A stretch of DNA of 64,000 nucleotides from Tubulanus polymorphus (lineage: Eukaryota; Animalia; Nemertea), in contig NC_134027.1 of the NCBI RefSeq assembly GCF_964204645.1, forward strand, positions 22,840,560 to 22,904,559, read 5' to 3'. Numbering within the stretch: position 1 is the stretch's first letter; each line of letters starts with the position of its first letter. The position numbers were made by a program, and so were the translations under genes. A model generated the notes under the pieces. That model was not told where the DNA came from. It ran no database searches and worked only from the letters and a program-made list of their open reading frames with translations. Below, in pieces: positions 20 through 63,125 of this stretch.

Positions 20-667
20 CTGTTGTATATTCAAATGTGAGGATAACAATCGCAAACACGATCCACACTACATTCTGAATAGAACAAAATTAAAACCGTT
101 TTACATCATCAGGTTTGCTTTATTTCTAAATTAATTCTCCAATCGACGTCTAAATTGTTCGTATCCATTCCATCAAGGAAAAGACCTGGGGCCGGTTTCT
201 CAAATGTTGTTTAAGTCTTAAACAGTCGTTAAATTGCTAAACGGGTCGCTAAAAATTAACCAGTCGTTAGTCTTAACGACTGGTTAAAATTAAACAACCT
301 TTGAGCAACCGGCCCCTGATTTTATCATGGACCCTAAAACGAGAACTTAATTTCAGAGTCCATGTTTTAATCAAGTCGTCTATAGGAATTCGTTTTTATT
401 GACTTGTGAATCTGAATATTGATCATTTTGAATAGAAGAAGACAATTTGTGTATGGATCTATTATAGACGGGTACTTGAAATCCAAAATCCTTCTAAAAA
501 GGGTTTCGTTTAACCCAAATACCTTATGGATAAGTTTGGTATTATTAACATTTCTTCGGTTATGAGAAGGCTGCTGTGGTTATACGTTGGCAACCCTTGT
601 ATACCTACGACATTATGGATAAAAATATGCACTAGTATATACTCACTTGGACGCGTTGAAATTTCAT
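20..667 (-). CDS. G0: 5' coding exons (start exon + signal-peptide exon) of an IgSF receptor gene running off the left edge; paralog of G3
   Basis: Exon 667..647 (MKFQRVQ, then gtgagt) and 55-nt exon 74..20 (NVVWIVFAIVILTFEYTTG, ag/gt bounded). Both are homologous to G3 exons 33416..33393 and 33082..33028, and the flanking DNA 1-1160 matches ~33020-33895. Confidence 0.75.
189..315. mobile_element. MITE, PIF/Harbinger-like (GGGCC termini, CTG target duplication)
   Basis: TIRs gggccggtttctcaaa / tttgagcaaccggccc, flanked by ctg on both sides. Absent from the paralogous site near 33186. Confidence 0.65.
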
Positions 668-1238
668 TGTTTTCCGAGTAGTCTCGAATAGTTTAAAAAA
701 GAGATGTCGTTTCGATAGTTTTTTTTTTTACAATAATCGTCAATCAATCCCTTGAAACACCTTGTTGAAACAGAATATAATATGCCAAATCTAAATCTTA
801 GCTAAAACAATCCTGTCTTCGAGAAGGTATTGCGTAACATATTAATGCGTCGCAGAAATTCAATCCAAATTGAGATTTCTTTAAACTTCACTTCCTCGTC
901 GCATTACACGGTGCATTAAGGCACTGCTTATGTTGAAATTCTTTCAATTTGCGATACTATACGATCTATACCTAGTTCTAGTATATTTCATAAAGGCTAT
1001 TCAAACCATACTATTGTTTGGAAAATGGGAAATACCCGCGCAGTAGGTTTTATTTTCGAGAATAGCTGAATTACGAAATAACCAAATTCCGATAATGGAC
1101 ATGAATTTATTGTTTAACCCTCTATTGACCTCCGAAACCGGTATCTTCGGGAACCATTCGCTTATACACTGAGGTCTGCAGAACCACTTATCAAATAATT
1201 GTCGATTCGATTCCGTTCTGAGGTCTTGTCGATTGTTT

Positions 1239-1715
1239 GCTGATGTCATAGGGGGATTTATGTAAGTAATTCCCTAACTCGGTACCGATTCAATCACCAC
1301 GTCAATCACTGATGATGTCATAGGGGGATTCATCCATACACTCATACTTCCTGGGAGTGTCTACATATCACTTCGATGATGTCATAGGAAGGTCTATGGG
1401 GACAGCCAACTTTTCTAGCAAGGAGTCTAGATCAATCTGATGATGTCATAGGGGGGTTTATGGGAGCAGCCATATTTACTAGCAAGGCGTCTAGATCAAT
1501 CTGATGATCTCATAGGGGGATTTATGGAAACAGTCCCCTTAACTACAACTGGTTCAATCACCACGCCAATCAATTTGATGATGTCATAGGGGGATTTATG
1601 AAATCAGCCATCTCCTCTTGAAGTGTCTTCTGTGTCATTTTCTGATGTCATGGGGTGGTTTATAGAGGCAGCCATCTTTTAGATTAGTTTGCTGATGTCG
1701 TAGGGGGATCTTATC
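1239..1715. repeat. Degenerate tandem array, ~8 units of 50-75 bp with core TGATGTCATAGGGGGATTTATG
   Basis: Core copies at ~1239, 1310, 1375, 1438, 1502, 1576, 1642 and 1691. The intervening sequences are related to each other (cagcca, tctagatcaat). Confidence 0.8.
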
Positions 1716-2817
1716 TAGAAATGCCACTCGATGTTATTCCTTTTGATCACTATTGCTTTTAATATGGCTGACTGGCAGCCATCTTTGATTTTCAAAATCA
1801 ACTATCCTCATCATCACTTTTTCAAGTAGAATCTCACTTTTCACAGGAACAATGTGAAGGTCATATTTTACTGGTTGGAACTTTGTTGTTTTGATTTCTC
1901 TCATTTTACCACTAGAACTGTTTATATCACGAAATCTGAAATATCCAGTTCCTAAGCAACACGACAATGTTCGCGTGAGATATTCGGTAAAATATTTTTT
2001 TTCGAACGCTTTTTTCGCACCCGGAAGGAATTCTCAACGGTGGTTTTTATCGTGTTATTGGATTCTCTGGCTACGGTTGTGCTGCCGTGTGAGTGTGTGA
2101 GTAAGGACCCCCCACCTCTCCCCTTTAGACCGTCATGAAACGAGTATCGACTCGAAAGTCGTTAGATTCGGTTTTCTGTAGTTTTTTTCTCCATTTTCTT
2201 CGTTTGTTGTTGCTTGGAGCAGACGACCTTGATCTCACAGACAAGAGAAAACAGAAGTTCCTACATCACAGCGGCAATATTTGACCGATTCGTTGAGAGG
2301 CTACGAAATTTGCATTCATGAAAAAAAAAAAAATCGAAAATGAGATATCACGCGTGAAATGATATATCTCACAATGAAATATACACGTGATATTTGAGAT
2401 GATAACACAGTTTTAGAGTCGGAAAACTGGCAATTGGCGGCAGCAATTTGATATTTCGATACTATCTCACTCTCTCATCCCGAAGACGTCAAACGGCGAT
2501 AAATCGGGAGAAATCGCGAGACTTATTAACAAGAAACACTTTGTTTATATCACCAACGTTAACTTGGTCCAGCTTACGAGATTGCCAGTCCTAAAATCTG
2601 ACTATATAATTCCAGGGATCTGAATGACCAGACGATTTTATGACCTTACTGGCGGACGAAATATCGATTGCTTTCTAGGAACGAAATACTACGGTATTCA
2701 TACGCTCGCTAATACCCTTACTCTTAAGAAGTGCATAGCGAACCAACTATATAGTGAGACTAGATGATACAATCGGGCGTGTAATTGTGGTATTTTTGAT
2801 GATGACTTAACCTCCTG

Positions 2818-2925
2818 GACCCAGTTCCACAGTTGTGAGTTAGAGTTAACTCTGAGTTAAAGTTAGTTCATATTCAATGAGTTAACTCTGAGTTAAATCT
2901 TAACTTGGAACTGCGGAACTGAACC
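2818..2925. mobile_element. Palindromic MITE with CTG target duplication
   Basis: TIRs gacccagttccacagtt / aactgcggaactgaacc, internal gagttaactc palindromes, and ctg on both sides. The empty site (cctcctggtaagga) is seen in the related copy near 3080. Confidence 0.6.
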
Positions 2926-3059
2926 CTGGTGAGGAGGGCTTCAAAAATCAGTATATAGACTCATTGGTTGTTCCTCTCCACGGAAATCTTTTTTTTTAAA
3001 TCTTAACGCAGGGACTTCTTTGGCCGGTAGGTTGTGATTGAATTACAGTACATCTCTTA

Positions 3060-6000
3060 TATTATTGTTTTAAGCTACCCTCCTGGTAAGGAGGGATTCA
3101 AAAATTACTGTTTAGACTCATCGATTGTTCCTCTCCACGGAAATCTTTAGTAAAAGGCGAAAGATTTAAACGCAGTTGAAGAGAAACCAGAGTGCTCAAG
3201 CTGACATTCCTCGAGATACTTATACCCCGAAACCATTGCCTTTACACACGGTGTTTTACTTTCGACAAAATTTAGATTTTTTTCCGCCACAAAATCAGTC
3301 TTTTAGCCAGAAGTTTCCACAGATTTTAGTCAGAATTTTATCCAAATTTAAATTACACTTAATTAGATCAATCAACAAGCAATGATGCTAAAGTTACAAA
3401 TTTATGATTATATTCATGATGATGGTATCTCGTTTTCCGTGAGTGCTCGGTAAATTCCGTCAATCTCCGACTAGGTGCACCACTCACACTCGACTCTAAA
3501 TAACAATATATTAATTAAACTCGCTAGATTTGTAAATGCTGGTCTCAAGCTACTCTAATATTAGACACGAGCCAAATTTGACTCGCACCAAAATAATCGT
3601 TTCCGTGTGTTCGCGGCTAAACATTAGTTAAACTGCCTTACTTTGGGGTAAACAGTGTTGTCATTGGTTCGAACCTAGTTACTACTGCTTTTTAACAGCA
3701 CTGAATATTTTTTATCTTAAAATATGTATTGACCCCGTTATATATTTGATTGGTAGATTCCGTTTGATTTTCGATCTTGGTGTCCAATACAAACCCATCA
3801 CACCTGCCGGTATCGGAACAGGGGGTTTGTTATCGGCCCCAAATGACAACACAAACACATTTAAACTGAGAACTCCCGTATTCATGTATATGGTTTGTGT
3901 GAAAGCGATGCGCGATTATTTCAATAAAATATTCCAGAAAGTTTTACCTATATCTACATAAATATGTATGAATAGAGAAAGAATTTAGGACCGAAGGCTA
4001 AACAGAAACTTTATTCAATAAGGTATGAGAATTAGATTCAATTTATTCCTCTCCGACCGATGTAGAACACATTTATTCAAATGTTCCAATATGGTTAATG
4101 AGATGAACTGCATTCAACGGAGATAAAATAATGATCCTGGTGAAACGTGACTTGATTGGTCGGATATACTCGGCAGGAGTCTAATGTAACCAGGGTCCAA
4201 TTTACTTCAATTTATCATTTAACAGATCGTCCAACATGATTCGTACAATAGAACGCTTACGATAGACACAGCACTCAAAATGTTCACTCCTAGTGACAAT
4301 ACGACACGTGGCCCGGTCCCGCAGCTCCGCTGGTGTCAGAGCGTCCAAACTCGTCCGGTTAATGTCAAATTAAAATTCAATGTTCTAATGTATTTAGGAT
4401 GTTATCTACCGGCGTCAGTACTGGGTATAACATTCAACGCATTCACGTTGTTAGTTCTAAAACGGTTTAAATCTGATGTTTATTTTCTCATCAAAATTCT
4501 CGCTATAAACGATCTGTTGTTTATGATCGCTACATTCATTCTTTATCCGCTGAGAACTGCGTACATTTACGCCGTTTTGGGAGATATGTTGTTCCGCGTA
4601 GATGACTGGAATCTCGGGTGGATTTTTATTTCAATATCTATGCCGTTTTTCTATATATTTCAGATGACGCGTAACTGGTGCACTGTACTGCTCAGTCTAG
4701 AGCGGTTAATCGTCGTATTGTTTCCAATAAAATCTCGTAGAATTCCCAGAAAGCTGATCTCACAGGGCGCAATGTTATTTATTTCTTTGTTGGGTTTTTG
4801 TGGTCATTTAGGTCAATTTATACCCCGCCAACATCTTGGATTCATCAACTGTCCTGACTATTGGCCTTATATCACAAGACGGCGTGGAGTGATCCGGTAC
4901 AATTTTAACATACGTTTCTGGATTTTTGCAGTTTCTGAGCAGGCTTTTTTCTTCTTTCTCACTGTCACGTTTCCACTTTTCATGCTTGTTTTCATGAATG
5001 TAATTCTTATTTCGGCGACATTTTACCGTCGGGTTACTCGACGTTCACAGCTCGGTGTAACTGATGAATCGTCTAGAAGGGAAATGAGGGTTTTAAGGAT
5101 GGTTTTATCAGTTGTTTTATTGTTTATTATTTGCGAAGGTTTGGGATTTGTGGATCGTAGAAGAAATTGGTTCCGCATAAAGGAAATCGGTTTTTCTTTT
5201 AGATTAATCGCATTGGCATTTTCTATTGTTGATTCATCAGTAAATTTCATTATATATTGTGTGACAAACGACAAATTCAGAAAATCGTCCGTTGACATTC
5301 TCAGGAAAGCTTGTTCTAGAAAAGTTTCTTGTTATCGATGAATAGCTGGCGTGAGTTGAGATCAGACAATTCTACAGTGGAACTCGCTCCGGATTTCCTT
5401 CTAGTTCGGATGAAATATAATATTCGGTCCATCTGAACAGGAACCATCATCTAAACTATTATTTATAATCCGGGTTTAATTTAATTCGGGTGAATCTGGA
5501 CGCCGTCCTTAGCTTTCCGTGTTGTAGTGATATCTACTGCGATCTTATTCAATTACCGGTATACATTGAACTCGCGCGGTCTTGCGAAGTTATTCACTTC
5601 TGAAAGTTAACAAAGATCATACTGTTTATATTAGTAAAAAAAACTGATTGAATATAAAATAGTTTGAACGTAAAGTAAGAAAAAACTCACAATTAAATTT
5701 TAAAGAAAATCTCGATGAGAATCTAATACAGAGGCATCAAAACTGTCCGAACATTTCTCAAACTGGAAAAGAAAGGACAAAAAGGACGATGATATTTTAA
5801 CAATGTTTTTACAACGGATGAATTCATAAAACTGACACCAAAACTGGGAGGGGGTTAGTTTTTTGCAAAATAGGTTAATCTGCATTTCTTTTCTGTTTGA
5901 ATTATCAGGTTGTAAAAATGCTACAGCAAATCACCCGCCCTAATGATAAAGCCTTATAAGTAGTCCAAGTGTTATCTTAATCCATTAGATCGATAGTAAA

Positions 6001-8212
6001 ATGTTACATCGACTATATATTCAAAATAGTCTTAGACTGGAGCTAATTCTAAGCTAGGCCACCGGCTGAATGGCATTTTACATTATCGTTGTAAATTACC
6101 CTCCCGGCAAGGTGGGCTTCAATAATCAGTCTATACACTCATTGATTGTTCCTCTCCACGGAAATCTTTAGTAAAAGGCGAAAGATTTAGACGCGGTTGA
6201 AGAGAAACCAGAGTGCTCAGGTTGTCATTCCTCGAGATACTTATACCCCGAAACCGTTGCCTTTAAACTCGGTGTTTTACTTTCGACAAAATTCTGATTT
6301 TTTTTCCGCCAAAAAATCGGTCTTTTAGCCAGAAGTTTCCACAGATTTCAGTCAGAATTTTATCCAAATACATATTACACTTAATTAGATCAATCATAAA
6401 GCAATGATGCTACAGTTACAAATATATGATTATATTCATGATAATGGTATCTCGTTTTCCGTGAGTACTCGGTAAATTCCGTCAATCTCCGACTAGGTGC
6501 ACGACTCACACTCAACACCCTCTAATGTGACTCGGACCAAATCGTTTCCGTATGATCGCGGCTAAACATTACATAAAATGCCTAACTTTGGAGTGTCATA
6601 GGTTCGAACCCAGTTATTACTGAACTAGGTTTCTTTAACAGCACAGAATATTTTTTATCTTAAAATAAGAATTGACCCCGTTATCTATTTGATTGGTAAA
6701 TCCGTTTGATTTTCGATCTTGGTGTCCCTTACAAACCCACGACACCTGCCGGTATCGGAACAGGGGGTTTGTTATCGGCCCCGAATGACCACACAAACTG
6801 TGAAGTGAGAACTCTCGTATTCTTGTGTGTGGTTTGTGTGAAAGCGATGCGCGATTATTTCAGTAAAATATTCCAGAAAGTTTCACCTATATCTACATAA
6901 ATATGTATGAATAGAGGAAGAATTTAGGACCGAAGGCTTAACAGAAACTTTATCTAATAAGATATGAAAATTAGATTCAATTCACTCCTCTGCGACCGAT
7001 GTAGAACACATTTATTCAAATGTTCCGCGATGGTCTATAAGCTGAACTGCATTCAACAGAGATAAAATAATGATAACTTGGTGAAACGTGACTTGATTGG
7101 TCGGGTATATTCGGCAGGAGTCTGATGTAACCAGGGTCCAATTTACTTCAATTTTTCATTTAACAGATCGTTCAACAAGTTTCGTACAATAGAACGCTAA
7201 CGATAGACTTATTACAGCGGCCGAAAATGTTCGCTCCTAGCGACAATACGACACGTGGCCCGGTCCCGCAGCTCAGCTGGTGTCAGAGCGTCCAAACTAG
7301 TCCGGTTAATGTAAAATTTAAATTCAGTGTTCTAATGTATTTAGGATGTTATCTACCGGCGTCAGTATTGGGTATAACATTCAACGCATTCACGTTGTTA
7401 GTTCTAAAACGGTTTAAATCTGATGTTTATTTCCTCATCAAAATTCTCGCTATAAACGATATTTTGTTTATGGTCGCTACATTCATTCTTTATCCGCTGA
7501 GAGTTGCGTACCTTTACGCCGTTTTGGGAGATATTTTGTTCCGCGTAGATGACTGGAATTTCGGGTGGATTTTTGCTTCAATATCTATGCCGTTTTTCTA
7601 TATATTTCAGATGACGCGTAACTGGTGCACTGTACTGCTCAGTCTAGAGCGGTTAATCGTCGTATTGTTTCCAATAAAATCTCGTAGAATTCCCAGAAAG
7701 CTGATCGCACAGGGTGCAATGTTGTTTATTTCATCGTTGGGTTTTTGTGGTCATTTAGGTCAACTTATACCCCGCAAACATCTTGGATTCATGAACTGTC
7801 CTGACTATTGGCCTTATATCACAAGAAGGCTTCGAATGATCCGGTACAATTTTAAAATAAGTGTCTGGGTTTATACAGTTTCTGAGCGTATTCTTTTCTT
7901 CTATCTTACCGTCTCGATTCCACTTTTCATGCTGGTTTTCGTCAATGTTATTCTTATTTCGGTGACATTTTACCGACGGGTTACTCGACGTTCAGAGCTC
8001 GGTGTAACTGATGATTCGTCTAGAAGGGAAATGAGGGTTTTAAGGATGGTTTTATCAGTAGTTTTATTGTTTATTATTTGCGAAGGTTTGGGATTTGTGG
8101 ATCGTAGAAAACAATGGTTCCTCATAAAGGAAATCGGTTTTTCTTTTAGATTAATCGCATTGGCATTTCCTATTGTTGATTCGTCAGTAAATTTCATTAT
8201 ATATTGTGTGAC
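3060..8212 (+). repeat. Tandem duplication (~2.95 kb period) carrying the two GPCR genes
   Basis: ~3060-5265 aligns to ~6020-8212, including upstream non-coding DNA. Similarity ends abruptly after ...tattgtgtgaca in the second copy. Confidence 0.85.
4280..5341 (+). CDS. Rhodopsin-family (class A) GPCR, peptide/chemoreceptor-like (FMRFamide-receptor-like group), intronless CDS
   Basis: 353-aa ORF with seven hydrophobic segments, TM1 GITFN, TM2 LAIND, TM3 SLERLIVVLFP (DRY variant), ECL2 Cys, TM7 SSVNFIIYC and helix-8 KFR. Confidence 0.9.
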   Translation: MFTPSDNTTRGPVPQLRWCQSVQTRPVNVKLKFNVLMYLGCYLPASVLGITFNAFTLLVLKRFKSDVYFLIKILAINDLLFMIATFILYPLRTAYIYAVLGDMLFRVDDWNLGWIFISISMPFFYIFQMTRNWCTVLLSLERLIVVLFPIKSRRIPRKLISQGAMLFISLLGFCGHLGQFIPRQHLGFINCPDYWPYITRRRGVIRYNFNIRFWIFAVSEQAFFFFLTVTFPLFMLVFMNVILISATFYRRVTRRSQLGVTDESSRREMRVLRMVLSVVLLFIICEGLGFVDRRRNWFRIKEIGFSFRLIALAFSIVDSSVNFIIYCVTNDKFRKSSVDILRKACSRKVSCYR

Positions 8213-8243
8213 ATATGCTGGTAAAAATGAACAATGTCTGTAG
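7227..8243 (+). CDS. Second GPCR paralog, C-terminally truncated (no helix 8); may be functional or a young pseudogene
   Basis: 338-aa ORF closely similar to 4280..5341. After NFIIYCVT it runs into unrelated sequence (YAGKNEQCL*). Confidence 0.8.
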   Translation: MFAPSDNTTRGPVPQLSWCQSVQTSPVNVKFKFSVLMYLGCYLPASVLGITFNAFTLLVLKRFKSDVYFLIKILAINDILFMVATFILYPLRVAYLYAVLGDILFRVDDWNFGWIFASISMPFFYIFQMTRNWCTVLLSLERLIVVLFPIKSRRIPRKLIAQGAMLFISSLGFCGHLGQLIPRKHLGFMNCPDYWPYITRRLRMIRYNFKISVWVYTVSERILFFYLTVSIPLFMLVFVNVILISVTFYRRVTRRSELGVTDDSSRREMRVLRMVLSVVLLFIICEGLGFVDRRKQWFLIKEIGFSFRLIALAFPIVDSSVNFIIYCVTYAGKNEQCL

Positions 8244-8489
8244 TTAATTTTCAATCCAAAGATCCGTTGCATGTCTAACATGATTTAACCTTTCTATGAC
8301 GAAATACAAAATACTTTTGATGATTATGTTGTTAACCCAGAAGCTAACCTCCAATTCACCGTTGTACTGTGAATCTCGTAGAATCATTTTTCTATAATCT
8401 ATTTGCTGATAATTTCAGTTTGTAGTCCAAATTATGAACACACATTTATACCTATGCAGCTGTCATGATTCGACATTTTTACAACGGTG

Positions 8490-8825
8490 GGCAAAAGTGA
8501 CGTTCTCAAAGCCAATCTCAAAGCGCGCAATAGGTGACAGGGCATTCCAATTTACAGCACCTGCCCTTTTGAACCAGCTGCCCCTAAGTATTAGACAACG
8601 TCCATGACCAGTGCAGTTTTAAGAAGAACTTGAAAACTTAATTTTTTAGAAAAGTTTATGACTACAGTTTATCTTAGTCACCTTTAAATTCTAACGAATA
8701 TTTAGTCTCCAAGCGTTTTAAAATTACAACTTTATCAGCTCATATTTATCGTATACTGATGTAAAGCGCACTGATTACACTTTGTAGGTGTGCGCTAAGA
8801 AAATGAATGTATTATTATCATTATG
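8490..8825 (+). mobile_element. 3' fragment of an L2/CR1-type LINE
   Basis: Degenerate RAF..APAL.NQLP.SIR....FKK.LKT-like C-terminal coding sequence, then a gtaaagcgcactg...gtgcgcta stem and a tattattatcattat tail. Absent from the paralogous promoter near 34035. Confidence 0.55.
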
Positions 8826-9102
8826 TTTTGGTGGTATGAAAGTGTTGTGATAAAAGTCATAAAATGCTGTTGTTTTTAGTTCAATTGGTAAATATGATTT
8901 TAAAAATAGTATGATATCTACATGTCGGCGGGGCTACATCCATAGGCAGCATATCATTTCATACATTCATTTAATAAGGTTGTTTTCTAAAGGTTGTGAA
9001 TACAGCACCCGGTCACAATTCAACAACCCTGCATATCACTTAGAAATACCGGATTCACGTTTTCTTAAACACCACGCACCTGAGTCGCTTTTACGTATAT
9101 AA

Positions 9103-9119
9103 TACTTCCTGGTTGGAAT
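9103..9119 (+). promoter_or_regulatory. Conserved promoter motif TACTTCCTGGTTGGAAT (ETS core) upstream of G1
   Basis: The identical 17-mer occurs at 18897 (G2) and 34359 (G4). It contains the ETS core (CAGGAAGT on the - strand) and is preceded by a TA-rich stretch. Confidence 0.45.
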
Positions 9120-9491
9120 AGACAGATGTTTTTAAGATATTCATTCGAGGGGAAATCTAAGGGTTCGATTTTTTAGTAGTGTTGATTTGCGTATCGTAAA
9201 TTTTACTTCAGTCGCTTTACTTTAAAATTTATTTTCGTCATTTCTACTTTCGCTTTGCTGTTATTTCTTATTTACGTCATGATGATCACAAAACTCGATT
9301 TCCAAAGGTCAGAATAACACTTTCTATTTATCGTTTTTCAGTATTACTTTCTACTATTATTATAGTATGTATTCTGATTCAGTATAACACTTCAGCCTTT
9401 TCGTGCAGCACTTGGAGAGGGCACGATGTGATAGTCCATGATATGTCTATGCCTATTTAAAGATATTCCATGGTTCTTTGAGGTATACAGC

Positions 9492-12400
9492 ATGTATAGG
9501 AAGGTAATTATCTGAGCTATATGTTGTCATGCATTATGATATCTAAAATAACTCTGGATGTGGTTCCATTGTTGGTTAACATTTGACCTTGTGACTGATA
9601 CGCACGCATTCAATCATAATCTTGGACCATATTATGCTATAGTAATATTTCTCACGTCCTACGTTTTCGGGCCCAGCTTCACAGATTTTATCAGAAACAG
9701 TACAAACGGACTATTCATAGCTTATCTGGCTCAAACACATGCATAGCTACCTGTGATATTCTAATATCAACTAGATCTAATGAATGAATAAATTTATTTT
9801 CTAATTAATTTATCGCATCAATGATGTTATGAATTAAAAGCATATACGATATTCTATGAATTTTAACACGGTGAAGGACCCCGGCAAGCCAATAGCTGTA
9901 AACAAATTGTGGCCGAGTCCTCTAATAAATGAGAATGAACAAGAAAAAAAGACTAACAGAAGCAAAAGAAAAGAAGGAAAAATAAAATTAAAAGCAAAAG
10001 AAAAAAAGACGGGAAATATAATGAAGTAGAGTAAAACCATAATGCTAAATCAATACAGTATCTTCATTACAGAATTGTTTAACATTGACTGTAGTGTTAT
10101 TACTGATGATGTGCACAGGAATAAACGGTAAGGGAAAATATAACAGTCACGTAGCTTCGAACTTTCCAAACTCATCTTTATTGAACTTTTACCGTGGTAA
10201 AATCAATGACGATCCATTCAGGAATTCCAATCACATGAAATATTATGCTTATTACTCCTAGCTATTCTAAAAGAGGAAAAATGTATTTTTTTCATAACCT
10301 ATATTTCATTCTGATTAACTTGGTGGCCGTTTATTTCAGCCCATATTTCTAAGGTGATTAACATTGCAACGTATTTGATGATGTCGTTGGGGAGATGGCG
10401 ACGGTAGTTTTTCAAAGATGGGAGAAATTAGTTGATCATTGATGAAATTTCATTTCCACTTGTTAGTTGGTAATAAGAAACTCGTTGTTAAATATTTCTA
10501 GGGCAGCAGCAGAACTGTATAGACGCAGCGGATACGACGATCACGGCAGTTGCTACACCAGCAGTTGTAAAACTAGGTGGCACCACTGTCGTACAATGTC
10601 AGGTTTCACCAACCAGTAAAGATTTCTGCGGGCACGGAATAACACTGAGTAGCCCCTCACGGCAGTTTGCGCTTGATAAGACCGACTGTCCTCGTGGAAC
10701 TATCACTGAAAACAACGCTGTAGAATGTGACGTCACAGCTGGACGTTATGGTTTACGTATCACTAACGTACAGATGACTGATGCTGGAGAATGGTCATGT
10801 GACTACATGAACTCTTTCCCCAATACTAAAACAGTTATTACCGTAGTAGGTGAGAATGACGAATAATAAAGAATATCATAGAAAATACGTGTATTTTTGA
10901 TAACTTCCGAAAAATGTTTAGGTGACAAAAGATTTTTATTTGAATTTTCTGCGAGTTTTTCCTTCATTCTTCTTACAAAAATTGATTAATAATAAGATAA
11001 TCATTTTCGCTGCCTTTTATGGTGGGATGTTTTACTGAGAAAAAAACACGCAAAAATAGCGTCTGATTTTATGTTACGTCCCCAGGACGCTTTCGAACAT
11101 TTTCGATTGAGAATCACCGAGTCTGATGCATAGTTTAAGTCATTCTAATTTGAAACCCTTCACGAATAAACACTGTTTTCTACTATCCCGACGTGTCATA
11201 TTTTGCTTGTAGTCCATTTATCCATTGTGTCAGATAAGCTTGGGTGGCTTTACATTTACAGCGCCCCCGAGTGGACCAGTTCTAAGATCTCAACCAAACA
11301 CCACCAACAACAACATCGTCGCAGTACAGGAGAATTCACCATTAACAATCACATGTGACGGTTCACAGCCTGGAGCTACAGGACTGGCGTATATATGGAG
11401 TGGTGTCAATCTATCAGGACAGTCTAATAATAAACTCAGTTTTACAGCTGTCAGTAAAACTGATTCAGGTGTTTATACGTGTACAGTATCGAATACATAT
11501 GGAACAGTTACTGGTAGAATCACTATCAATGTTCAGTGTAAGTGAACACTTGTCATTTTATTCTTCATTTTAATCCATACATCCACATCAAATACTAATA
11601 TAACGAATTGGTTTTCATAGACAAGCGACTGTAGTAAATTGAAGAAAAAGCCAAACAAAAGTTTCTGCTAAAGAAAAAACTATGTAGTTTTGTTAACTAT
11701 GTAATGAGAAGACGTATATGTTTCTCTGATGGCTGATTAGGACGGCAAAAGAAATGTTTATGCTGCTCAATATTTCCAATTCAATATTTACGCAAACGTT
11801 CGAAACTGTGCGTTTTTTGATTTCTGTAGACCGTTGATCTACCAAATCTATTTCATGTAATCACCGTATCATTGAGTCAGCTATAATTTTACCAAAAATT
11901 CTGATTTTGCGAATTCGATACTCGCTGATAACATTTCTAGCCTCTGTCCAGTTTCACCAACTTCGATAACGGCGATTTAAGATTCTGGCAGCATACCGAG
12001 TTCGGTGGCATATCGGGGGTTAAATCTGATTCGTTGCAGATGTTCCGTTCTCTGAAAAAAGCTGGCGTTAGGGGGGTGGGGGGTGGTGATTTTTCAGGGG
12101 GTTGTAGTAACCGTGTCGCTTATTATACTTTCACAAATGCTCTTGTATGCTACGTCCATTTTGATTGGCTCAGAATTCAGTCCCTCTACGTCACTACTCG
12201 CATAGGTCTTCCTTGTAATCGTTACTTTTCTTCAGTCTTTTTTTTCAATTTTAAGCATTACTTGTTTTGTCAGTTTAGGTCCGAGATTTCATAGTTAAAT
12301 TCCGGGATTGAATGTTGACAAAAAACTCTCTCACGTAGTCTTATGATGGAATGTATCTATAAGGTCACCAAATATCGAAGTAACTTACAGATTTATCAAT

Positions 12401-44304: not shown

Positions 44305-44325
44305 AGTGACTTCTTTTATTTCTCG

Positions 44326-44374
<49 letters not shown>

Positions 44375-44450
44375 TTTCTTTATATATTATTTACTCAATT
44401 AATGGTTATTGGTAATAAATTAGTGAACTTTCTTTTTACCCTAATGTAAA

Positions 44451-47010: not shown

Positions 47011-47026
47011 TTTTATTAACGTAATA

Positions 47027-50000: not shown

Positions 50001-52857
50001 GTTTTATAGAGTAAGGGTTGCACCGGATGATAAAGACTGCTTGAGATTCTTATGGTGGCCGGATGGTGATTTGAACAAGAAAGCCTTACCATTCCGTATG
50101 TTAGTTCACTTATTTGGGGCAATCTCATCCCCGAGTTGTTCTAACTGGGCTTTACGCCGGACAGCCACTGACAACGTTAGCAAGTATGAAGTAGAAGTTA
50201 CCAATACAGTCTTGAAAAACTTCTATGTTGATGACTGTTTGAAGTCTCGTGTACAACAAGATGGTCAAAATCCAGAATTTGTGATGAAACTGATATCTCT
50301 GTGTAAAGAAGGGGGCTTTCGACTCACCAAGTTTGTAAGTAATGATCGTTCTGTAATTGAAAGTTTGCCAGAGGAAGAGCTTGCTAAATCTTGCAAGGAG
50401 TTGAAGAGTCTGGATTTTGGTTCGCCAACAGAAAGAGCATTGGGCGTCCACTGGAATATAGAGAACGACACTTATGGCTTCAGGATAACTTCTAAGCATC
50501 AACCAAATACACGCAGATGGATTTTGTCAACGGTCAGCACAGTCTATGATCCTTTGGGTATTGCTGCCCCATATGTACTGCCGGTGAAAATTCTGCTACA
50601 GGACTTATGTAGAGAGAAGCTTTCATGGGATGAAGAAATTCCTGAAAAATATCTGAAAGTTTGGGAGAAATGGCAGGAAGGTTTACCTGGCCTTGAAGAG
50701 TTGGCTATATCACGATGCTTCAAACCTCAATGGTTTCATGGTTCTTCGAAATCTTGTCAGCTGCATCATTTTGCGGACGCAAGTGATGTTGGGTACGGCA
50801 CTGTATCATATTTGCGCCTTGAAGATGAAAATGGTCAAGTACATTGTTGTTTTATATTTGCTAAAAGCAGAGTAGCTCCTTTGAAGAAAATGACAGTTCC
50901 TAGGATGGAATTTGCTGCAGCTGCATTACTGATTAAGATGAATAAGATGATGTTGGAAGAATTGGAGTACAGTGTTTCAAATGTATATTTTTGGAGCGAC
51001 AGCACTGCAGTACTGAAATATATTGCTAATGAGACTGCTCGTTATCACACTTTCGTAGCGAATAGAGTGAATTTAATTAGAGATGGTTCAAGTATTCAGC
51101 AGTGGAAGTTTGTAGATGGTCATCTGAACCCAGCAGATTATGCGTCTAGGGGTTTGTCACTGGATTGTATAGAACAAAACTCAGTAGTATGGTTACACGG
51201 CCCGGAGTTCCTTTGGAAGCCAATATCTGAGTGGCCATGTCAACACGGTGTTTTACGGTCCCTGAGTGATGATGATGTTGAGTTGAAGAAGACTTCTAAT
51301 GCTGTACTTTCGGTTTCTGATGATGATCCTATAAGACATCTATTTAACTACTACTCAAGCTGGCATAGACTCAAACGTGCCGTTGCATGGTTTTTAAGGT
51401 TGAAAGATTGTTTGCTGTTGAGAGTAAGTAAACGTCTTTCTGGTGAAAACGCTAATGCTGAACGATTGAATACCAATAAGCTGAGTACTGATGATCTTCA
51501 AAGAGCCGAGCTGGCAATTATTAAATGCGTACAGGAAGATTATTTCAGGAAAGAATTAGTGATTCTCCGTTCAAATGATAGAAAGTTGATTCCCAGAGGT
51601 AGTCAATTGTATCAACTAGATCCTGTTTTAGAAGACGATATAATCCGTGTTGGTGGTCGGCTGAGAAAAGCATATTTTCTTGAATATGAACAACGACATC
51701 CGGTTGTATTGCCTAGATGTTCTCATGTGTCGAAATTGATATTGTTGAGTGTTCATGCATCGGTCGGGCATCTTGGTAAAAGCTCAATGTTAGCCCGATT
51801 GCGCGAGCGTTACTGGATTTTAAGGGCTAATCAACTGGTTAAGGATATAACGAGGAAATGTGTTTTATGTAAAAAGTACCGTGGTCAAGTTTGTAATCAG
51901 AAGATGGCAGATCTTCCTCAAGAGCGATTGTTGCCTGACAATCCGCCATTTACTAATACGGGAACAGATTACTTTGGCCCGTTTGAGGTAAAACGGGGTC
52001 GTTGTATTGAGAAGCGTTATGGTGTTATCTTCACCTGCCTGGTAACTAGGGCTGTTCATTTGGAGGTCTCGCCTACTCTGGACACATCTGGTTGTATTAA
52101 CGCTTATCGCAGATTTATCGCACGACGTGGAAATGTACGTCTAATTCGATCTGATAATGGAACCAATTTTGTTGGAACCAATCGAGAGCTACAGAGGAAT
52201 ATTGATTGTTGGAATAAGGACCAAATCCATGATTTCTTATTGCAGAACAATGTCAAGTGGATTTTTAATCCTCCAGGTGCGAGTCACTTTGGAGGTGTAT
52301 GGGAACGCCTCATTCGTTCCGTCCGTAAAATCTTGTTTTCATTGATGAAAGAACAAGGTTCAAATCTAAATGATGATAATTTATCCACATTGTTCTGTGA
52401 GGTCGAGTCGATTTTGAATAGTCGACCTATATCTACGTTATCAAATGATCCAAATGATCTACAACCTTTAACCCCGAATCACCTATTACTGTTACACAAA
52501 GGATCTACTTTTCCTCCCGGACTATTTGACAAATCCGATTTATATACTCGACGTCGTTGGAGGCAAGTTCAGCATATTGCGAATGTTTTCTGGAAGCGGT
52601 GGACATCTGAGTATTTGCATCTCCTGCAGATTCGCAGTAAATGGAATACTGCGAAACGAAACGTATGTGTTGGAGATATTGTCTTCATCGTCGATGGATC
52701 CATCCGTAACTCGTGGACTCTATCGCGTATTTCAGAAGTCCATCGTGATCGAAAAGGTTTTGTTCGTTCGGCTTCAGTAAGAACGGCAAAGGGTACTATT
52801 TTTCAGCGTCCTATTGATAAGCTGTGCGTTCTCGTCGAAAATGAAATTAAACTTTAG
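47027..52857 (+). CDS. BEL/Pao gag-pol polyprotein (one -1 frameshift near 47158 joins ORF 47027.. to ORF 47257..52857)
   Basis: N-terminal RSLTEKG motif, three Zn knuckles, protease FLDPGS, RT FYVDD, RNase H FADAS, and integrase GTDYFGP / SDNGTNF / GGVWERLI, in BEL domain order. Confidence 0.9.
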
Positions 52858-52966
52858 ATTCTTTTTGTTACTTTAGATTCATCGTGCTTAACAGTCAAGA
52901 ATAGGTTTTTGTTTTTGGACATTATCGTTATTATGTTAATTGAGTTTCTCAATTAGGGGGCGGGTA

Positions 52967-53394
52967 TGTAAGGAATAATTCCTGAAATTCTGCTTTATTG
53001 TATTCTGTATACTGTATTTGATATATTTCTATGGTTGTTATTTCATGGTTTCTGGTCATGGTAATTCTATAGCCTGAGAATTTGTATAGTTCAATAGATA
53101 TATCAGATATTGAGATTTTTGGTCACTTGTTATATGGATTTAGACCTGTAAGGTTGTGTTGCTGTATTTGAGTAAAGGGTGAAGATTTAAATTGAAGGTT
53201 TAGACAGCCAAATATTACGGTAAATTGCTAATATAAAGATATTCTCTTATGTCAATAATTATACAAATTTATTTATGGTAATTTTCTATTTGTTTGTAGT
53301 TAATCGTGCATCCGTGTTTGTGACGTCTGAAAATAAATGTCCTAATGATTTTTTGCCACGGAACATGAATCTTACGTATCGGTTGATCTTCACA
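52967..53394 (+). repeat. BEL 3' LTR
   Basis: Preceded by the PPT and followed by the TSD ctggc. Confidence 0.95.
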
Positions 53395-53399: not shown

Positions 53400-54715
53400 C
53401 ATGGCCATTATTGCTGCTAAGCTAGACAAGGATTCCTTGTCCGAAAGTTTAGTTTTCTGGTTTTCTACTACTGTTTCATCTCTCCTTTTCTCACTTTTCT
53501 TAACTTTATCGAATCGAGTTAATCCATCGGCATTTTGATGGATCGCCCCTTTTCTATGAGTGATCGTAAAATCATAAAGATTGTAAATATTGTTGTAATG
53601 TTGATAATTGTAAAGACCACCTAGCCAATTTTCCACTGGGCTCTTTCATATTCATCAACCATTTTAACGCGTGGTGATCGGTGACTACTTCAAATTTATT
53701 GCCATAAATGTATGGTTCATACCTCTTAACTGCCTCAACTACCGCTAGGCATTCTCTCTCAGTCGTGGATAGGTTACGTTCTGCGGCCGAGAGAGTTCGC
53801 GTGCCATAGCAAATCACTCTTTCAGATCCATCATGAATCTGTGCCAGAACAGAACCTATAGCTTCTGAGGATGCATCAGTAAATAAGATAAATGGCATTT
53901 CAAAGTTTGGATACGCCAAAATTGGAGTGGTTGTTAACTTATTCTTCATTGTGTCAAAAGCTAATTGACAAGATTCAGACCAAATAAATGGAACGCTTTT
54001 CTTAGTTAGGTCTATCAATGGCTGAGCTATGCGTGCAAAGTCTTTTATAAATTTCCGATAGTAAGAACACAGATCTAGAAATCCTCTTAGTTTCTTAATG
54101 GTTAATGGTTGGGGATATTCTTGAACAGCGGCTATTTTATCCATATCAACCGAAATTCCTTCCGCCGAAATGATATGTCCTAAATATTTAACAGACTTCA
54201 AACCAAATTTGCATTGAGGATTTCAATCTTAGTCCTGCCTGTCGCAATCTATCAAATACACATCTTAAATTATCTAGATGTTGTTGCCATGTACTACCAA
54301 AGCATATGATATCATCTATATGAACCATACATATGTCATTAGTCAAGCCATGTAAGACCTCATCCATCAGTCTGGAAAAGATTCCTGGACTGTTGGCCAT
54401 GCCTTGAGGCATTACCTTCCATCTATAAAGTCCTCTTTGAGTACAACATGAAGTAATATCTCTACTCCCTTCTTCTAATTCAGTTTGAAAGAATCCTGAT
54501 AATAAATCAAGAGTAGTGAAAATGATTGGTTTGCTTTGACCCAATGAAGATAAAAGTCTTTCGATTCTTGGCAGAGGATATGCATCCTTCCTAATTACGG
54601 CGTTTACTTTTCTATAGTCTACACAAAATCTATAAGAACCATCTGGTTTCTTAATAAGAACCACTGGAGATGCCCACGCGGCATCTGATGGTTCAACTAA
54701 ATCCATATCAACCAT
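53400..54715 (-). pseudogene. Gypsy reverse transcriptase and RNase H fragments
   Basis: WASPVVLIKK, RFCVDYR, MPQG, HIDD (mutated YxDD), YLGH, FTDAS and ERECLA. Frameshifted. Confidence 0.9.
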
Positions 54716-54922
54716 TTTTGATACTTGTCTATCTATTTCTGTCTCAAGAATCGGTGCAGCTCGATAAGGGCGCGACCTAATTGGGGGATGTCCTTCAACA
54801 TCAATTGAGGCTCTTATTAAATTAGTTCTACCTATCTCTTCCGGGGAATTTGCAAAGCAATCCCTATATTCCTTTGATTTCGTTAATTCATTTTTCTGTT
54901 CATTAGTTAAATCAGACTCACT

Positions 54923-56506
54923 TCAATCAACATTTGGAGCTCCCAATAAATCATCATTTTCTATGAATGGGCTTGCAGTTTGGTTAAATGGTGACCTTAT
55001 TCCACTTATTTCTGGTTTATCTTCCGTGTTGGAAGATTCTTCAATAGAAAATATTTCCTTACCCGTATTACTATACTGTGGTAGGAAATAACCTAATGTG
55101 GTTCCTTTACGTATAATTACATCCTCGTCATTTACATTCATTAATCGAACCGGTATATAAAGTTCATTAACAGTTCCTAATGTTTGACCACATAATATTT
55201 TATATTTTGCTGGTAAATTATAATCAGAATTTACTATCCCTTGAGTGCCATTCGATATAGGTGCTTGAACACTACCCATAATAAAATTTCAGAATTTGCT
55301 GGTATTTTCTCACTTTGTCTTGCTGCAATTTTACTAGACCAACAAGTGGTGCTACCACTCCTATTTTTGTTAAAGTCAATAATCTATTCTCAAAATCAAT
55401 AAATGCTTTATATTTTTCTAGATAATCGCTTCCCAAAATAACATCATGAATAAGATTATCAACTATGTAAAAATCATGAGTGGTTGTATCGTCATATATA
55501 TCCAAATTAATCGAGGTCAATCCTAATAATTTGAAATTACTTCCCTGTACTGAAATTGCTTCTTCAAAACTTCCCTTTTTAAATGCGGGCTTTTCATTTA
55601 AACTATTGTATACTTTCAAGCTCAAAACCGAAATTCCAGCACCCGTATCAATAAGGCATTCAACTGATTGACCATTAATTTTAGCGTTTATTGTCATCGC
55701 TAACGATGTCATAAATGGACATAGGGGTAATTTAGTTGCATTGATGGATACACGATTGTTTGACTCTTTTAAATTAAACTTTGTTTTGCTCGAAATAATG
55801 GGTGAACTTTGCTTGCAGAGGAAACCGGGTTTTTGTCAAATGTGATTAGATTTTTTGGAATTACTTTTTGTAATTATATCTTCATCAGAGTTCGTGTATT
55901 CATCATTTTTTTCTAAGCTGATTGTCGGGGTTGTATTCTCTTTGTTAGACCTAGAGTCTACCCCTTGAACCCAGGTCTGTTTTGGTTTTCCGAGTTCGAA
56001 TTTGACCTGCCATTTTGACGTGGGTTATTTCTATTATACTGGTAATTATTGTTAGGATTCTGATAGCGCGTGCACTCATGGTGCCCAGTTTTACCACAAC
56101 GCTGACAAATGATTCGGCCTTGATAGTTTCTTTGGTCTCTTGTAGGCAAATTTTTGTGCATTCTTTCAGTTTGAATTTTGAGACGCAATAATTCTCTCTG
56201 AAAACTATCCATCTGTTTGGTTAAGAGTTTTGTTATTTCCTTCATTTCCGAAACATCTTGCGAAACAGTGTTTAATTTAGAATCAGAAGGTGAAGATATT
56301 CCCGCAATCGGAACTGTGTTTTGAAGTGAATTGACCGATTCATAAAGGCGTGCAAAACCCTCAGCTTCATCAATGGTTGATGGACCTTTAGCGATAACGA
56401 ACATCTTCATGCCATTGTGCATACCCGAAATAAATGGCATTAATCGTTCACTTGACGTTTTTCCCAAGGACGAGCAAATGGCATGAATGTCTGTTATGTA
56501 ATCATC
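54923..56506 (-). pseudogene. Gypsy gag C-terminus (Zn knuckle) and aspartic protease fragments
   Basis: CQRCGKTGH knuckle in 55958..56467; CLIDTGA and ILGSDYL in 55272..55712. Confidence 0.85.
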
Positions 56507-58316
56507 TCTTCCCCTTCACAGCTCGTTTCAGATGAACACCTAGATTCGCTATAGACTAGTTACATTGATAACCATCGCATTGAATGTACCGGTTAATTTT
56601 CGTCAAACTTCATGCATTTCCGACTGGCGTTTTGGAAGTTACTGTCAATAATAATCACATTTGACATCCACCTTTTATATTCCCATTGCGGCAAATTCGG
56701 TTATGATGATGAATGGTTTCGTCTAGTGAGAAAACAACAAAATCAAAACGTACAACAATAATGCTTGTAACAGTTTCACTCGCAATCGAGAATCGCAAAA
56801 GAGATGGAGAGATTTTCTATATGACATTTTCACACAAATACATGTTTGACGAGATAATCGTGAATATTTCTAGACAAAAATCTGCTGTGGATATTAGTCA
56901 ACCATTGATTCCTAGTTTCATTCACTTAATACTACTTAAACCCGTACTGTGGATCGGTAGATGTGACGCACGCACGGACGCATGTATATTTTTTCGAATA
57001 CACTCCTTAAACTATACACATTTAACGCGTAATTCCATTGCAACATTTCTGCAAATAAAGAACGACAGGTTAGATCGAGTTTTCAAATTCATTTCTTAAT
57101 TTCCACTATCAACATTAGATTGATATTCATCAATGAGAAACACAAGTAAGAGTTAATGAGAAACGCAGTAGCAGTTAATGTGCTTTCGTGCACTGGACTC
57201 GACCTTGGGACCTCCGCTATCTGAGAATACTATAGTTTACGGGTAGTAGTTTTCCTGCTTAGCGGTGGGAATTCACTTTGATATCATTCTGACCTCGCTA
57301 CGAACGAACTTTTGAGCAAACATTTCCCAACGTGCTCAGATGCGTTACGTATATTTCACCATTTACAATGAATTCTGCAACAACGAACATTTACATCAAA
57401 TTTAGTTACATTTACATTTAGCACAGCAATAAACTTTCATGAATTTGAGTGTATTTTGTCAGGTTTCAAAGAATTGACTTTTCATTTGGTCCGAACAATA
57501 AATCGTGAACTTCCATTCATAAAACATTATTTCACTTGCGTTACATTATTTCCAGTCAGTCAGTCTACACAAGAGTTTGCCTTCACGTGTGAATCAGACA
57601 TTTAGTATCTTATATCCTCATGAATCATGAATTTAACTCAGATGCAAATCGGTTGACCTTATGCTAGTTACACAGTACTAATGTCACTAATTCACGCACG
57701 GTGAATTTTTTTGGCTGCCTAATTTAATACATCAAGATTTTGGAAGTAGCTAATTACAAGGGTGAAGATCATTTTGTCCATTTTTATATTTTTTTGGTCG
57801 TTTTCTACGTGTAAATAGTCCGATAGTTTATTGTGGTTTTTTCTCGGGTAGATGCTTTTAACGGTAGGTCAATTATCATTGAATTAAGTCACACATTTCT
57901 ATGAGAAAATCTAGAACATCTTGGAGACAATACAGAAACATTCTAACGAAGGGCTAGATATCGTAGACATTTTTTCCAACCATCCTTGACCGAGCCTCCG
58001 CGTCTGCCTTGTCATTTTCGGGAAAGTGAGCATTTCATTTGTCCGCTTGCATTCTTAGTTTTCCTTCGTTAAAATTTAGCTTCTAACGATATTTTACTGT
58101 TTTCTAAAAACACTGTATATTCATACATATCATCTATGTGTTTCTGGATATTATTGATTTTATATTTATTCCTGAACCGAATTTCCATCAATTGCAGTTT
58201 ATTCAAACATTAATGAAGCATAAGGCAAAGACTCGCGTATGGATTATATTCGTTTCATCTGAAACCTTCTTATCTCCCTGTGAAAAGCGTTTACTATTGA
58301 TAAAATTATATTTCAG

Positions 58317-58651
58317 ACTCTTACGCTGCGGAAACACTGTATGTAAATGTGGCTTTTGGCGGTAAGCAAATCATCATTAAATCACTTCATCAATTATCAT
58401 TAACCCATACCATAAAATTCATAAAATCGATAGACATCATTTTAAGCAAACAATTTAGAATCTTCACAAAAGACTTAGATATTGTCGGTTTTTTTTTGTT
58501 TTAACTACTCGTCACCTTAGCTCCGCGACCGCTTTATCATTTTTCTGGGATAGTGATAACTTTTTAAAACTATGTGTTTTGTTTGTTTCCTTCATTAGAA
58601 GCAGAGTCTGCAACTGATGACCAGAACCATTATGAAGAAGTCAGGAACTAG
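58317..58651 (+). CDS. Last two cytoplasmic-tail exons of a short-tail IgSF gene (probably the orphaned 3' end of G5)
   Basis: 58317-58361 (SYAAETLYVNVAFG) and 58599-58651 (EAESATDDQNHYEEVRN*) are homologous to G1 17407-17451 and 17631-17677. Downstream 58900-59210 resembles the G1 3' region 18085-18330. Confidence 0.7.
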
Positions 58652-61600: not shown

Positions 61601-62331
61601 AAAATTAGCGTTGATAGGAATGAATTCAGAAAGTCAAACCAACACGCAGGTCTTATAGAAAACTATCTACTCTTAATATTACAAATAATTGATAATAAAT
61701 CAGTGAGCTCACAATATAGATATTAGGCATAAGCATTATTGATGATGATATCTTGTAACTGTATTAGTCCTTTTATAGAAAAATATCTGATTGTGCTATG
61801 TTCTTATATAAACAGTTAATGTGCGTTAAGTCAAGTTAAGTTCTTGTATTTCTCTCTGACACCTGTTCCCAAACCCATCGTGGAGATTTTTGTTTTCTTC
61901 CAATTTTAACGTGGCAAATGAGTATTTTACACAGATATTATGCATGCAAATCGAAGGGCTAGATTTAAATCATATTTCAAAATCAACCCTACCACATTGA
62001 AAAAACTGTTAGAAACCAGCAGTGTTTTGTTAAAATACTACAAAATGGACGTCGGATCCAGTTTCACCATGATGTCCGTATGTAACTTTCAAACCTAATA
62101 GAGAACTGTAGAACTAGATCCAGAAATGGCTCTCCTAAATATTGCGATTGTTTCAGGGACGGATTTCGCAAGAGATCACGAAAACCTGTGAGAACGAAAG
62201 GATCTGACCGAGGTCCAGGAATGGCGCCAGACGTATCCTCGACAGTCATATGATATCAGTGATAACATGCTACATAGAATCCTTAGAACCTCGCTCGACT
62301 GAACACAGTGGATGAGACAATAATACAAAAA

Positions 62332-63125
62332 TCAACAACTCTTTTCCTGCTGCTCTTTTTCTTCACGTTGTCTGCGGCGTTCGGCCTCTTCTGCTTCCAA
62401 ACGAGCGACGAGTTCAGCTTGAACTTGCGGCTCAACGACGCGACCGAGTTCTGAGTACGTCGAATAATCATCGAAATCACCGATAAGCACACCAGGGGGC
62501 GCTTGAATTTTGACGTTGTTAACGACGTGTAAATAGATCGGTTCTTTTCTCAGTTCTTCTACATCGTCTGCATTGAATGCAGGGTTGTCGACACCACAGT
62601 TAACGTACTTCACGATATCCCCATCGTCATTGTTGTAAACGTCTTGATAAGGATTCTCTTTGTCGCCAATTGTTTGATAGGGATTTTCTGAAATCATACG
62701 CGTAACAACATTTAGTGAACTCAACAAACAATCCGTCAAACGATTCAGTTGGCCAGTCTACATCTGGGAATTGAAGGTTACAATAAATCTATCAAACCCT
62801 CCCGCATAAAAGTGGCTGCTTTCTGAAATGCCCATGACATCGTCAAGTCTGCCCACTAGTGATTGGATATTTACTTCACGCCCTATTTTCCACAGTAAAC
62901 TCTGCCTTACTTGGACTTCTTTTCTTTTCCCTTTTAGAAACGGTATTTTAGAGTTAGCGTATCGGACATCGCACAAAATTTCGATTCTCTCGTTAGAATC
63001 GGTGTACACGTAGAACTCACCCATTTCGTAGTTTCCATTTGTCTCTGCTTTTTTCGCCTTCTTTCCTTTACGCTTTTTGTTTTTCTCGACTTGCGCGTAC
63101 AATGGTTCTGCACTATCCACCGACC
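62332..63125 (-). CDS. G6: last cytoplasmic-tail exons of a long-tail IgSF gene entering from the right edge; paralog of G3
   Basis: Exon 63125-63021 (SVDSAEPLYAQVEKNKKRK...) and terminal exon 62687-62332 (NPYQ...EPIYLHV...STYSEL...EKSC*) are homologous to the G3 tail exons. Confidence 0.75.

Follow-up and report, generated by a model that had tools for sequence, protein, structure and literature searches.

The 64-kb stretch of DNA analysed here in its entirety (the window) carries seven related genes or gene remnants of the immunoglobulin (Ig) superfamily from the ribbon worm Tubulanus polymorphus: the V exon of one of them, G1, is a 100% match to a T. polymorphus RefSeq protein, and 17 of 17 matches come from this species. 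Three members (G0, G3 and G6) lie on the minus strand and four (G1, G2, G4 and G5) on the plus strand, and only G1 and G3 (2 of 7) have complete reading frames. By direct tests, these genes and their relatives show the genomic and evolutionary signature of paired receptors, i.e., genes, clustered in the window, whose similar ectodomains evolve in concert while being joined to different signalling parts. The preliminary description of this DNA had distinguished at least seven such members, split by strand, leader and tail, and all of them were recovered in place.

Exon models were snapped to AG/GT splice sites, with phases fixed. G1 (9492-17677, plus strand; RefSeq XP_074646839-42) is a complete short-tail receptor of 935 amino acids (aa) encoded by 15 coding exons, with the domain order signal-V-Ig2-C2b-C2a-C2b-Igc-Igd-FN3-transmembrane (TM)-tail and the tail motifs YSN, TPYVNV and NYEEV. 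G3 (25870-33416, minus strand; RefSeq XP_074645938, model P0014) is a complete long-tail receptor of 849 aa, in which signal, V, Ig2, Ig3, Igc, Igd, an FN3-like domain and the TM segment are followed by a 213-aa tail with DVYAQV, EPLYAQV, two NPY motifs, NPAY, EPIYL and STYSEL. The leader exon 2 is 55 nt long (phase 0>1) in G0, G1, G3 and G4, and the TM exon is 148 nt long (phase 1>2) in both G1 and G3, so that the exon lengths and phases reported earlier as common to both classes are confirmed by the exon models. The Pfam scan identified Ig domains in 10 of the 10 Ig exons scanned and FN3 in G1, and assigned no family to the last tail exon or to exon X, the membrane-proximal exon of G3 (28185-28463, minus strand). 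For the latter, an FN3-type fold is predicted: the AlphaFold model is a seven-strand sandwich (predicted local distance difference test score, pLDDT, 91) that matches fibronectin FN3 (Z 9.5, root-mean-square deviation 2.4, 84 residues aligned), in a tie with glycosidase beta-sandwiches. The first FN3 exon of G3 (28716-28897, minus strand) is broken by an in-frame stop and has lost its 3' half; judging by the RefSeq model, which omits it, and by the compatible exon phase, this exon is skipped. G1 retains only a decayed remnant of the second, FN3-like exon inside one of its introns (16104-16181, plus strand).

The other members are incomplete, in line with the tandem birth and death with many pseudogenes that was suggested before and held on testing. 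G0 (20-667, minus strand) is the 5' end of a gene with the long-type leader (coding exon 1, 647-667; leader exon 2, 20-74), and G6 (62332-63124, minus strand) comprises the last exons of a long tail that match the end of RefSeq XP_074646837; both continue outside the window. G2 (20221-24540, plus strand) is a short-leader pseudogene with a frameshift at the V end, a damaged Ig3, a last C2 exon that is cut off and no TM exon, and G4 (34766-35771, plus strand) is a short-leader remnant of two leader exons and half a V exon. G5 (38455-40585, plus strand) combines a short-type leader, V and Ig2 with an unrelated terminal exon, and its product is a predicted secreted protein of 251 aa (RefSeq XP_074646846, 47, 49). 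An orphan pair of exons (58317-58651, plus strand), the last two of a short tail with LYVNV and HYEEV and a 3' untranslated region resembling that of G1, probably belongs to G5 as its severed 3' end on the far side of a block of retrotransposons. The secreted V-Ig2 protein of G5 and tail-truncated splice forms (isoforms P0019 and P0027) could act as decoys.

The two classes share their ectodomains. At the nucleotide level, G1 and G3 are 83% identical in V, 92% in Ig2, and 79% and 68% in the later Ig exons, and the FN3 and second FN3-like exons are homologous as well; thus, the similarity noted previously for V and Ig2 stands but is not restricted to these two exons. As had also been noted, there is no clear similarity in the leader (51% in leader exon 2) or TM (57%) exons when compared with random 100-mers (52+/-4%). 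The introns flanking the shared exons are near the same background (43-62% vs 52+/-4%), so the similarity is confined to exons, and synonymous divergence (dS) between G1 and G3 is a mosaic, with 0.064 in Ig2, 0.32 in V, 0.33 in Igc, 0.61 in Igd and 2.6 in TM. From the mosaic dS together with the background-level introns, we infer exon-limited gene conversion, which likely keeps the ectodomains of long and short genes alike. Such exon-limited conversion has been described for Xenopus CEACAM pairs (PMC5112662), and gene conversion for paired leukocyte receptors in general (PMC3210942).

If long and short genes had formed two separate lineages since early on, one would expect ectodomain trees to be divided by tail; this is not observed. 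Identity between classes equals or slightly exceeds that within classes for V (0.714 vs 0.713), Ig2 (0.793 vs 0.786), Igd (0.583 vs 0.563) and FN3 (0.812 vs 0.807) and is slightly lower for exon X (0.655 vs 0.699); the mis-modelled P0015, the truncated P0017 and the divergent P0051 were left out when V identity and entropy were counted. Mapped on the V tree (16 rows), the long label takes 5 changes, not fewer than in shuffles, the nearest V of five of five long genes is that of a short gene, and a long-tail clade is rejected by the approximately unbiased (AU) test (p=9.25e-9), which answers the question whether V trees would separate by tail class. The clearest case is a long/short pair on a second chromosome: the two genes group as sisters in each of 5 domain trees (support 99-100/98-100), and 843 of their 888 ectodomain residues (95%) are the same, whereas their leaders, TM segments and tails are unrelated (tail z=3). 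Similar ectodomains (tail z 0-4 between the signalling parts) and concerted evolution across classes (AU test, mosaic dS and near-background introns) are thus both observed.

The tails themselves form three unrelated groups, namely, long (L, with the related L2), short S1 and short S2, with cross-group z of 4 or less, the chimera described below aside; the S1 TM exon is likewise far from the long-type TM exon (support 100/100, branch 1.59). Outside the window, a 3-Ig subfamily (P0020, P0024, P0051 and P0052) has a third leader type and its own L2 and S2 tails. The previously proposed link between leader and tail holds genome-wide in 10 of 10 genes with the two window leader types but fails for the third, which serves both a long and a short tail. 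Also outside the window, P0012/P0011 combines a short-type leader, a V nearest to that of a long-tail gene (87%), a long-type TM exon and a short-type tail, an apparent chimera that is either a real recombinant or a mis-joined model.

Within each class, the tyrosine motifs are conserved on two chromosomes, with drift in the remainder of the tail. Among 19 scanned tails (11 short and 8 long; P0110, which also has STYSEL, was left out), YE[ED][VIL] is present in 11/11 short and 0/8 long tails, and all 11 short tails end in YE[ED][VI]; S2, although unrelated to S1, shares the ending YxN...YEE[VI] with it (YEEI in S2). The ITIM (tyrosine-based inhibitory motif of immunoreceptors) pattern and [EDG]P[IL]Y[AS] each occur in 8/8 long and 0/11 short tails. 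All 4 long tails tested for Yxx[ILV] show an enrichment of it (p 0.004 or less), whereas the tail of G1 does not (p 0.11). The short-tail motif fits the Nck SH2 consensus pY-D/E-D/E-V quoted for CEACAM3 (PMC3308951), and the EPLYA motif of p140Cap is reported to bind Csk (PMC3561454).

The family comprises about 27 RefSeq models, 25 on a 27.8-Mb contig and 2 on a 16.5-Mb contig, all from T. polymorphus; some are probably halves of one gene, and RefSeq models may be mis-joined in a repetitive region such as this. The members have 3 to 9 Ig domains and 0-2 FN3-type domains, and several are named nephrin-like or syg-2-like in RefSeq. In a full-length profile search, 26 of 33 matches were from Tubulanus and the other 7 showed 22-24% identity. 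A V profile run against 1.84 billion representatives gave 62 matches, 46 of them not named, and the 8 that were both strong (E <1e-25) and covered most of the domain were all from Tubulanus. The long-tail end matched only Tubulanus proteins (8 of 8), which is weak evidence of absence elsewhere. Neither a close relative outside the species nor a 1:1 orthologue turned up in these sequence searches (V, full-length and long-tail end). The closest outside relative is a nematode C2-set/I-set/FN3 protein of nephrin-like build, colinear over ~900 aa at 24% identity (E 2e-42), and SYG-2 is among the PDB matches (E 1.6e-16, rank 11 of 33). The nephrin-like ancestry surmised earlier is therefore upheld by the colinear relative: descent from a nephrin/SYG-2-like adhesion gene is likely, the ~900-aa match supporting it without proof.

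Long and short genes are arranged head-to-head, which accounts for the strand rule (long on minus, short on plus). The start codons of G3 and G4 are 1,350 bases apart, and the 1.35-kb interval between them (33417-34765) is a candidate shared bidirectional promoter. The corresponding interval between G0 and G1 (668-9491) is homologous to it (622-1104 to 33368-33864, 78%; 8348-8425 to 33954-34030, 71%; 8826-9507 to 34041-34781, 71%) but is split by an insert of ~7.2 kb (1105-8347). The window as a whole can be viewed as a duplicated triplet long(-), short(+), short(+). In Botryllus, the FF/FcoR genes are described as co-expressed head-to-head pairs (PMC12582321).

In a comparison of 13 V domains, variation on strands C, C', F and G exceeds that on A, B, D and E (0.91 vs 0.39 bits, p=0.003), the strand limits being taken from a V-Ig2 structure model that is poor in Ig2 (mean pLDDT 52) and was used for the V strands only. 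In the second-chromosome pair, 5 of the 8 V differences fall at residues 43-49. Positive selection on V was not found by pairwise Nei-Gojobori counts on 4 window sequences, one of them a pseudogene, and the ratio of nonsynonymous to synonymous change (dN/dS) of Ig2 is near 1 (0.65-1.44). Structural look-alikes of V-Ig2 are the adhesion proteins A33, VSIG, CAR and lachesin; a V-V homodimer prediction scored 0.00, which carries no weight for or against homophilic binding. Six cysteines of the V domain are invariant or nearly so (e.g., in the V exon at 32296-32643, minus strand), and the C-strand tryptophan that is usual in V domains is missing.

Both classes are transcribed and spliced, as was to be checked after the initial reading, in a single run (X4) of unrecorded type, which we read as RNA on the sole ground that the joints in its contigs coincide exactly with predicted GT-AG introns. 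A further run, X5, yielded no match here, which counts neither for nor against transcription. At least 6 of 13 introns of G3 (all five tail introns and V-Ig2; from the 15 of 81 joints listed) and at least 9 of 14 introns of G1 (from the 15 of 28 joints listed and the listed pieces) are spliced. Joints in shared exons may derive from paralogues; those in the tails fit the own exon layouts of G3 and G1. Over two G1 exons, 5 letters in 545 differ in a second sample, and a 385-nt piece across the end of the G5 V shows 0 differences. Contig depth, which is high over shared exons and, in the second sample, low over 31.9-34.5 kb, was not used for copy number or polymorphism.

The insert between G0 and G1 contains two intronless copies of a rhodopsin-class G-protein-coupled receptor (GPCR) gene (4223-5341 and 7164-8243, plus strand), a tandem duplication with 91% identity in which the first copy matches Pfam 7tm_1 (E 3e-9) and the second is without the C-terminal end present in the first; an array of imperfect ~64-nt repeats (1238-1700) lies at the left edge of the insert. 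A very young long terminal repeat (LTR) retrotransposon (46583-53394, plus strand), which we take to be of the BEL/Pao type, has a single frame of 1906 codons, 428-nt LTRs with 1 difference and a 5-nt target duplication. It interrupts a fragmented element on the minus strand (about 43800-46580 and 53400-56520), presumably Gypsy-like with a chromodomain-like end, for which an LTR pair was looked for and not found. Between G5 and the retrotransposons, there is a G+C-rich inverted repeat pair (41868-42072 and 43089-43299, 87%), perhaps a small transposon.

On balance, and with moderate confidence, we favour the interpretation that these genes encode species-restricted Ig/FN3 receptors of nephrin/SYG-2-like origin, in which long- and short-tail members, with ectodomains probably matched by conversion, would deliver opposing signals on the same fast-changing, probably foreign ligand. 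Under this scheme, the GFCC' face of the N-terminal V domain would contact the ligand, and both types of tail would be phosphorylated by a tyrosine kinase. The terminal pY-E-E/D-V/I of short tails would serve as a docking site for Nck-type adaptors, leading to actin-based uptake or activation, as in CEACAM3, whereas long tails would damp the signal by recruiting Csk at EPLYA/EPIYA and SHP-type phosphatases at STYSEL. The head-to-head layout could ensure co-expression of one long and one short gene and might favour conversion between the inverted copies. More tentatively, we propose that this is the first spiralian paired activating/inhibitory Ig-receptor system, an independent derivative of a nephrin/SYG-2-like adhesion gene, in which Csk/SHP-type long and Nck-type short receptors would share one head-to-head promoter, be duplicated as a unit and have V domains matched by exon-limited conversion in a pathogen arms race; this fuller scenario we regard as possible but somewhat doubtful.

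Several observations weigh against opposite signalling and an immune function. A canonical ITAM (tyrosine-based activation motif of immunoreceptors) is found in 0 of 19 tails, and none of the 19 TM cores has the charged residue typical of KIR, LILR and Siglec-type partners. The motif classes are not clean either: 6 of 11 short tails contain an immunoreceptor tyrosine-based switch motif pattern (TPY[VM]NV), and two S2 short tails contain EPIYG; 6 of 8 long tails contain a loose ITAM-like pair, and YxN is common to both classes (11/11 short and 7/8 long). When long tails are shuffled, 13-37% of them contain one ITIM match by chance; most of the real long tails are near-copies of each other, and the sequences had already been seen when the YEEV and EPLYA patterns were picked. 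Nephrin-type tails also use YDxV/Nck signalling, for adhesion. Given this mixed motif evidence, the direction of signalling is a prediction. Furthermore, neither head-to-head pair is seen intact on both sides (G4 is dead and G0 leaves the window). Classic pairs homogenise the exon that binds the ligand, but in the window homogenisation is weaker in V than in Ig2 (83% vs 92%). Finally, all 6 window pairs have a V dN/dS below 1 (0.38-0.84), and the front-face pN/pS (0.57) is near that of the back face (0.48) because synonymous change is also higher on the front; diversifying selection is thus not demonstrated. With partly canonical tail motifs and no V dN/dS above 1, the opposite signalling and the immune or self/non-self role can only be proposed from the sequences.

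The same low V dN/dS also fits a nephrin/SYG-2-derived code for adhesion or wiring that is specific to the lineage, in which the endogenous partners of V would sit on neurons, epithelia or filtration cells, with the tails giving different cytoskeletal or endocytic outputs. The colinear nematode relative, the SYG-2 match and the adhesion proteins among the V-Ig2 look-alikes point the same way, and adhesion proteins of the Ig superfamily also use the GFCC' face. However, close relatives outside the species were not found in the sequence searches, and pseudogenes, Ig numbers ranging from 3 to 9 and near-identical long and short ectodomains would blur a wiring code; we consider this explanation unlikely. 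It is less likely still that an unstable, inverted tandem array has turned over mostly neutrally, an old long/short pair having been homogenised as a by-product of the layout, with no selection for opposing signals. The low number of complete genes (2 of 7), the duplicated L(-)S(+)S(+) triplet, the young retrotransposons and duplicated GPCRs of a rearrangement-prone region, and the fact that Ig2, with its dN/dS near 1, and not V is the most homogenised exon would all fit; nevertheless, the tyrosine motifs are kept per class on two chromosomes despite the drift of the tails, similarity does not extend past the exon edges or into the TM exon, splicing is observed for both classes, and the 3-Ig subfamily again pairs long with short, using a different short tail. 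The least probable alternative is an Alr- or FcoR-like self/non-self complex, with allele-specific cell-cell binding between individuals, damping by the long tail and triggering of rejection by the short one: ribbon worms are solitary and are not known to fuse, and the few allele differences mentioned above are ordinary. This alternative would be in keeping with the same build as Hydractinia Alr (PMC9546547), the second rank of Alr2 clusters by language-model features in both of two atlas comparisons (0.88, 0.92; tied with many generic Ig clusters), the head-to-head pairs of Botryllus FF/FcoR (PMC12582321) and the xenograft rejection reported for the nemertean Lineus (PMC2248247), but no Alr is among the named sequence matches, with no direct pairwise comparison made and 46 of the 62 V-profile matches not named.

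Paired receptors are well described in vertebrates, and a related logic is found in a colonial cnidarian and a colonial ascidian. For a solitary ribbon worm to bear this genomic signature would imply that the design has evolved again from an adhesion gene outside colony fusion, which would point to pathogen pressure as a general cause. The long/short pair on the second chromosome, 95% identical, lends itself to testing the idea that opposing tyrosine signalling is ancestral to bilaterian immunity. In the open-access literature searched, no paired activating/inhibitory Ig-receptor system is described for a spiralian, and, at the level of titles and abstracts, the T. polymorphus family is not described in the listed work on the species (17 of 19 records) or on nemertean and protostome Ig superfamily, ITIM/ITAM or paired receptors. 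The nearest spiralian precedents in this literature are single Ig receptors with tyrosine motifs in an oyster (PMC11999971) and polymorphic transmembrane clusters in a snail (PMC10875847). A study of immunity in Lineus ruber lists 16 Ig+TM genes without an analysis of this kind (PMC9835746).

Among known systems, nephrin and SYG-2 share with the T. polymorphus family a colinear array of V/C2-set Ig domains followed by FN3 and TM (24% over ~900 aa). An orthologue of nephrin or SYG-2 has a fixed set of ~8-9 Ig domains, one FN3 and a single conserved tail. The T. polymorphus proteins, in contrast, have 3 to 9 Ig domains, 0-2 FN3-type domains, including an extra FN3-like one, two or three unrelated tails (three across the family) and a V that is not recognisably orthologous, in ~27 models of one species. 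With KIR, LILR and Siglec, they share homogenised ligand-binding parts and conserved, different signalling parts (PMC3210942, PMC2832619), although the activating members of those families are described as mostly having a charged TM residue and an ITAM adaptor, compared to 0/19 TMs here.

The CEACAM family (human CEACAM1/CEACAM3 and the Xenopus pairs) is similar in having a V-type N domain with constant-type Ig domains (PMC5112662, PMC2832619, PMC3308951), in the opposite gene orientation, exon-limited conversion, secreted members and pseudogenes reported for it and, in the Xenopus pairs, in variation on the CC'C''FG face (PMC5112662). Its activating partner is described as relying on an ITAM-like tail of its own (YEEL, Nck) rather than on a charged TM, which we liken to the short tails. 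In contrast, the T. polymorphus family shows no orthology to CEACAM and has FN3 and FN3-like domains, long tails with one ITIM pattern plus EPLYA/EPIYA and NPY repeats, and partners that are head-to-head neighbours with whole ectodomains homogenised.

Botryllus FF/FcoR resembles the T. polymorphus system in the head-to-head pairs, which in Botryllus occur on more than one chromosome, in ITIM and non-canonical tyrosine motifs, and in recombination between ectodomains and tails (PMC12582321). According to the same source, FF has no tyrosine motif, and FF and FcoR are two distinct families thought to form one heterodimer, whereas both T. polymorphus partners have tyrosine tails and belong to one ectodomain family. 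Hydractinia Alr, as described, likewise comprises clustered genes of the Ig superfamily with V-set, further Ig, an FN3-like segment, TM and divergent tyrosine-motif tails, one domain per exon and many pseudogenes (PMC9546547). Alr tails include canonical ITAMs, absent from the 19 T. polymorphus tails, and Alr1/2 are the highly polymorphic homophilic allodeterminants of a colonial animal; nevertheless, with the same succession of V-set, Ig, FN3-like segment and TM found in both, Alr is the closest architectural parallel to the ribbon worm receptors.

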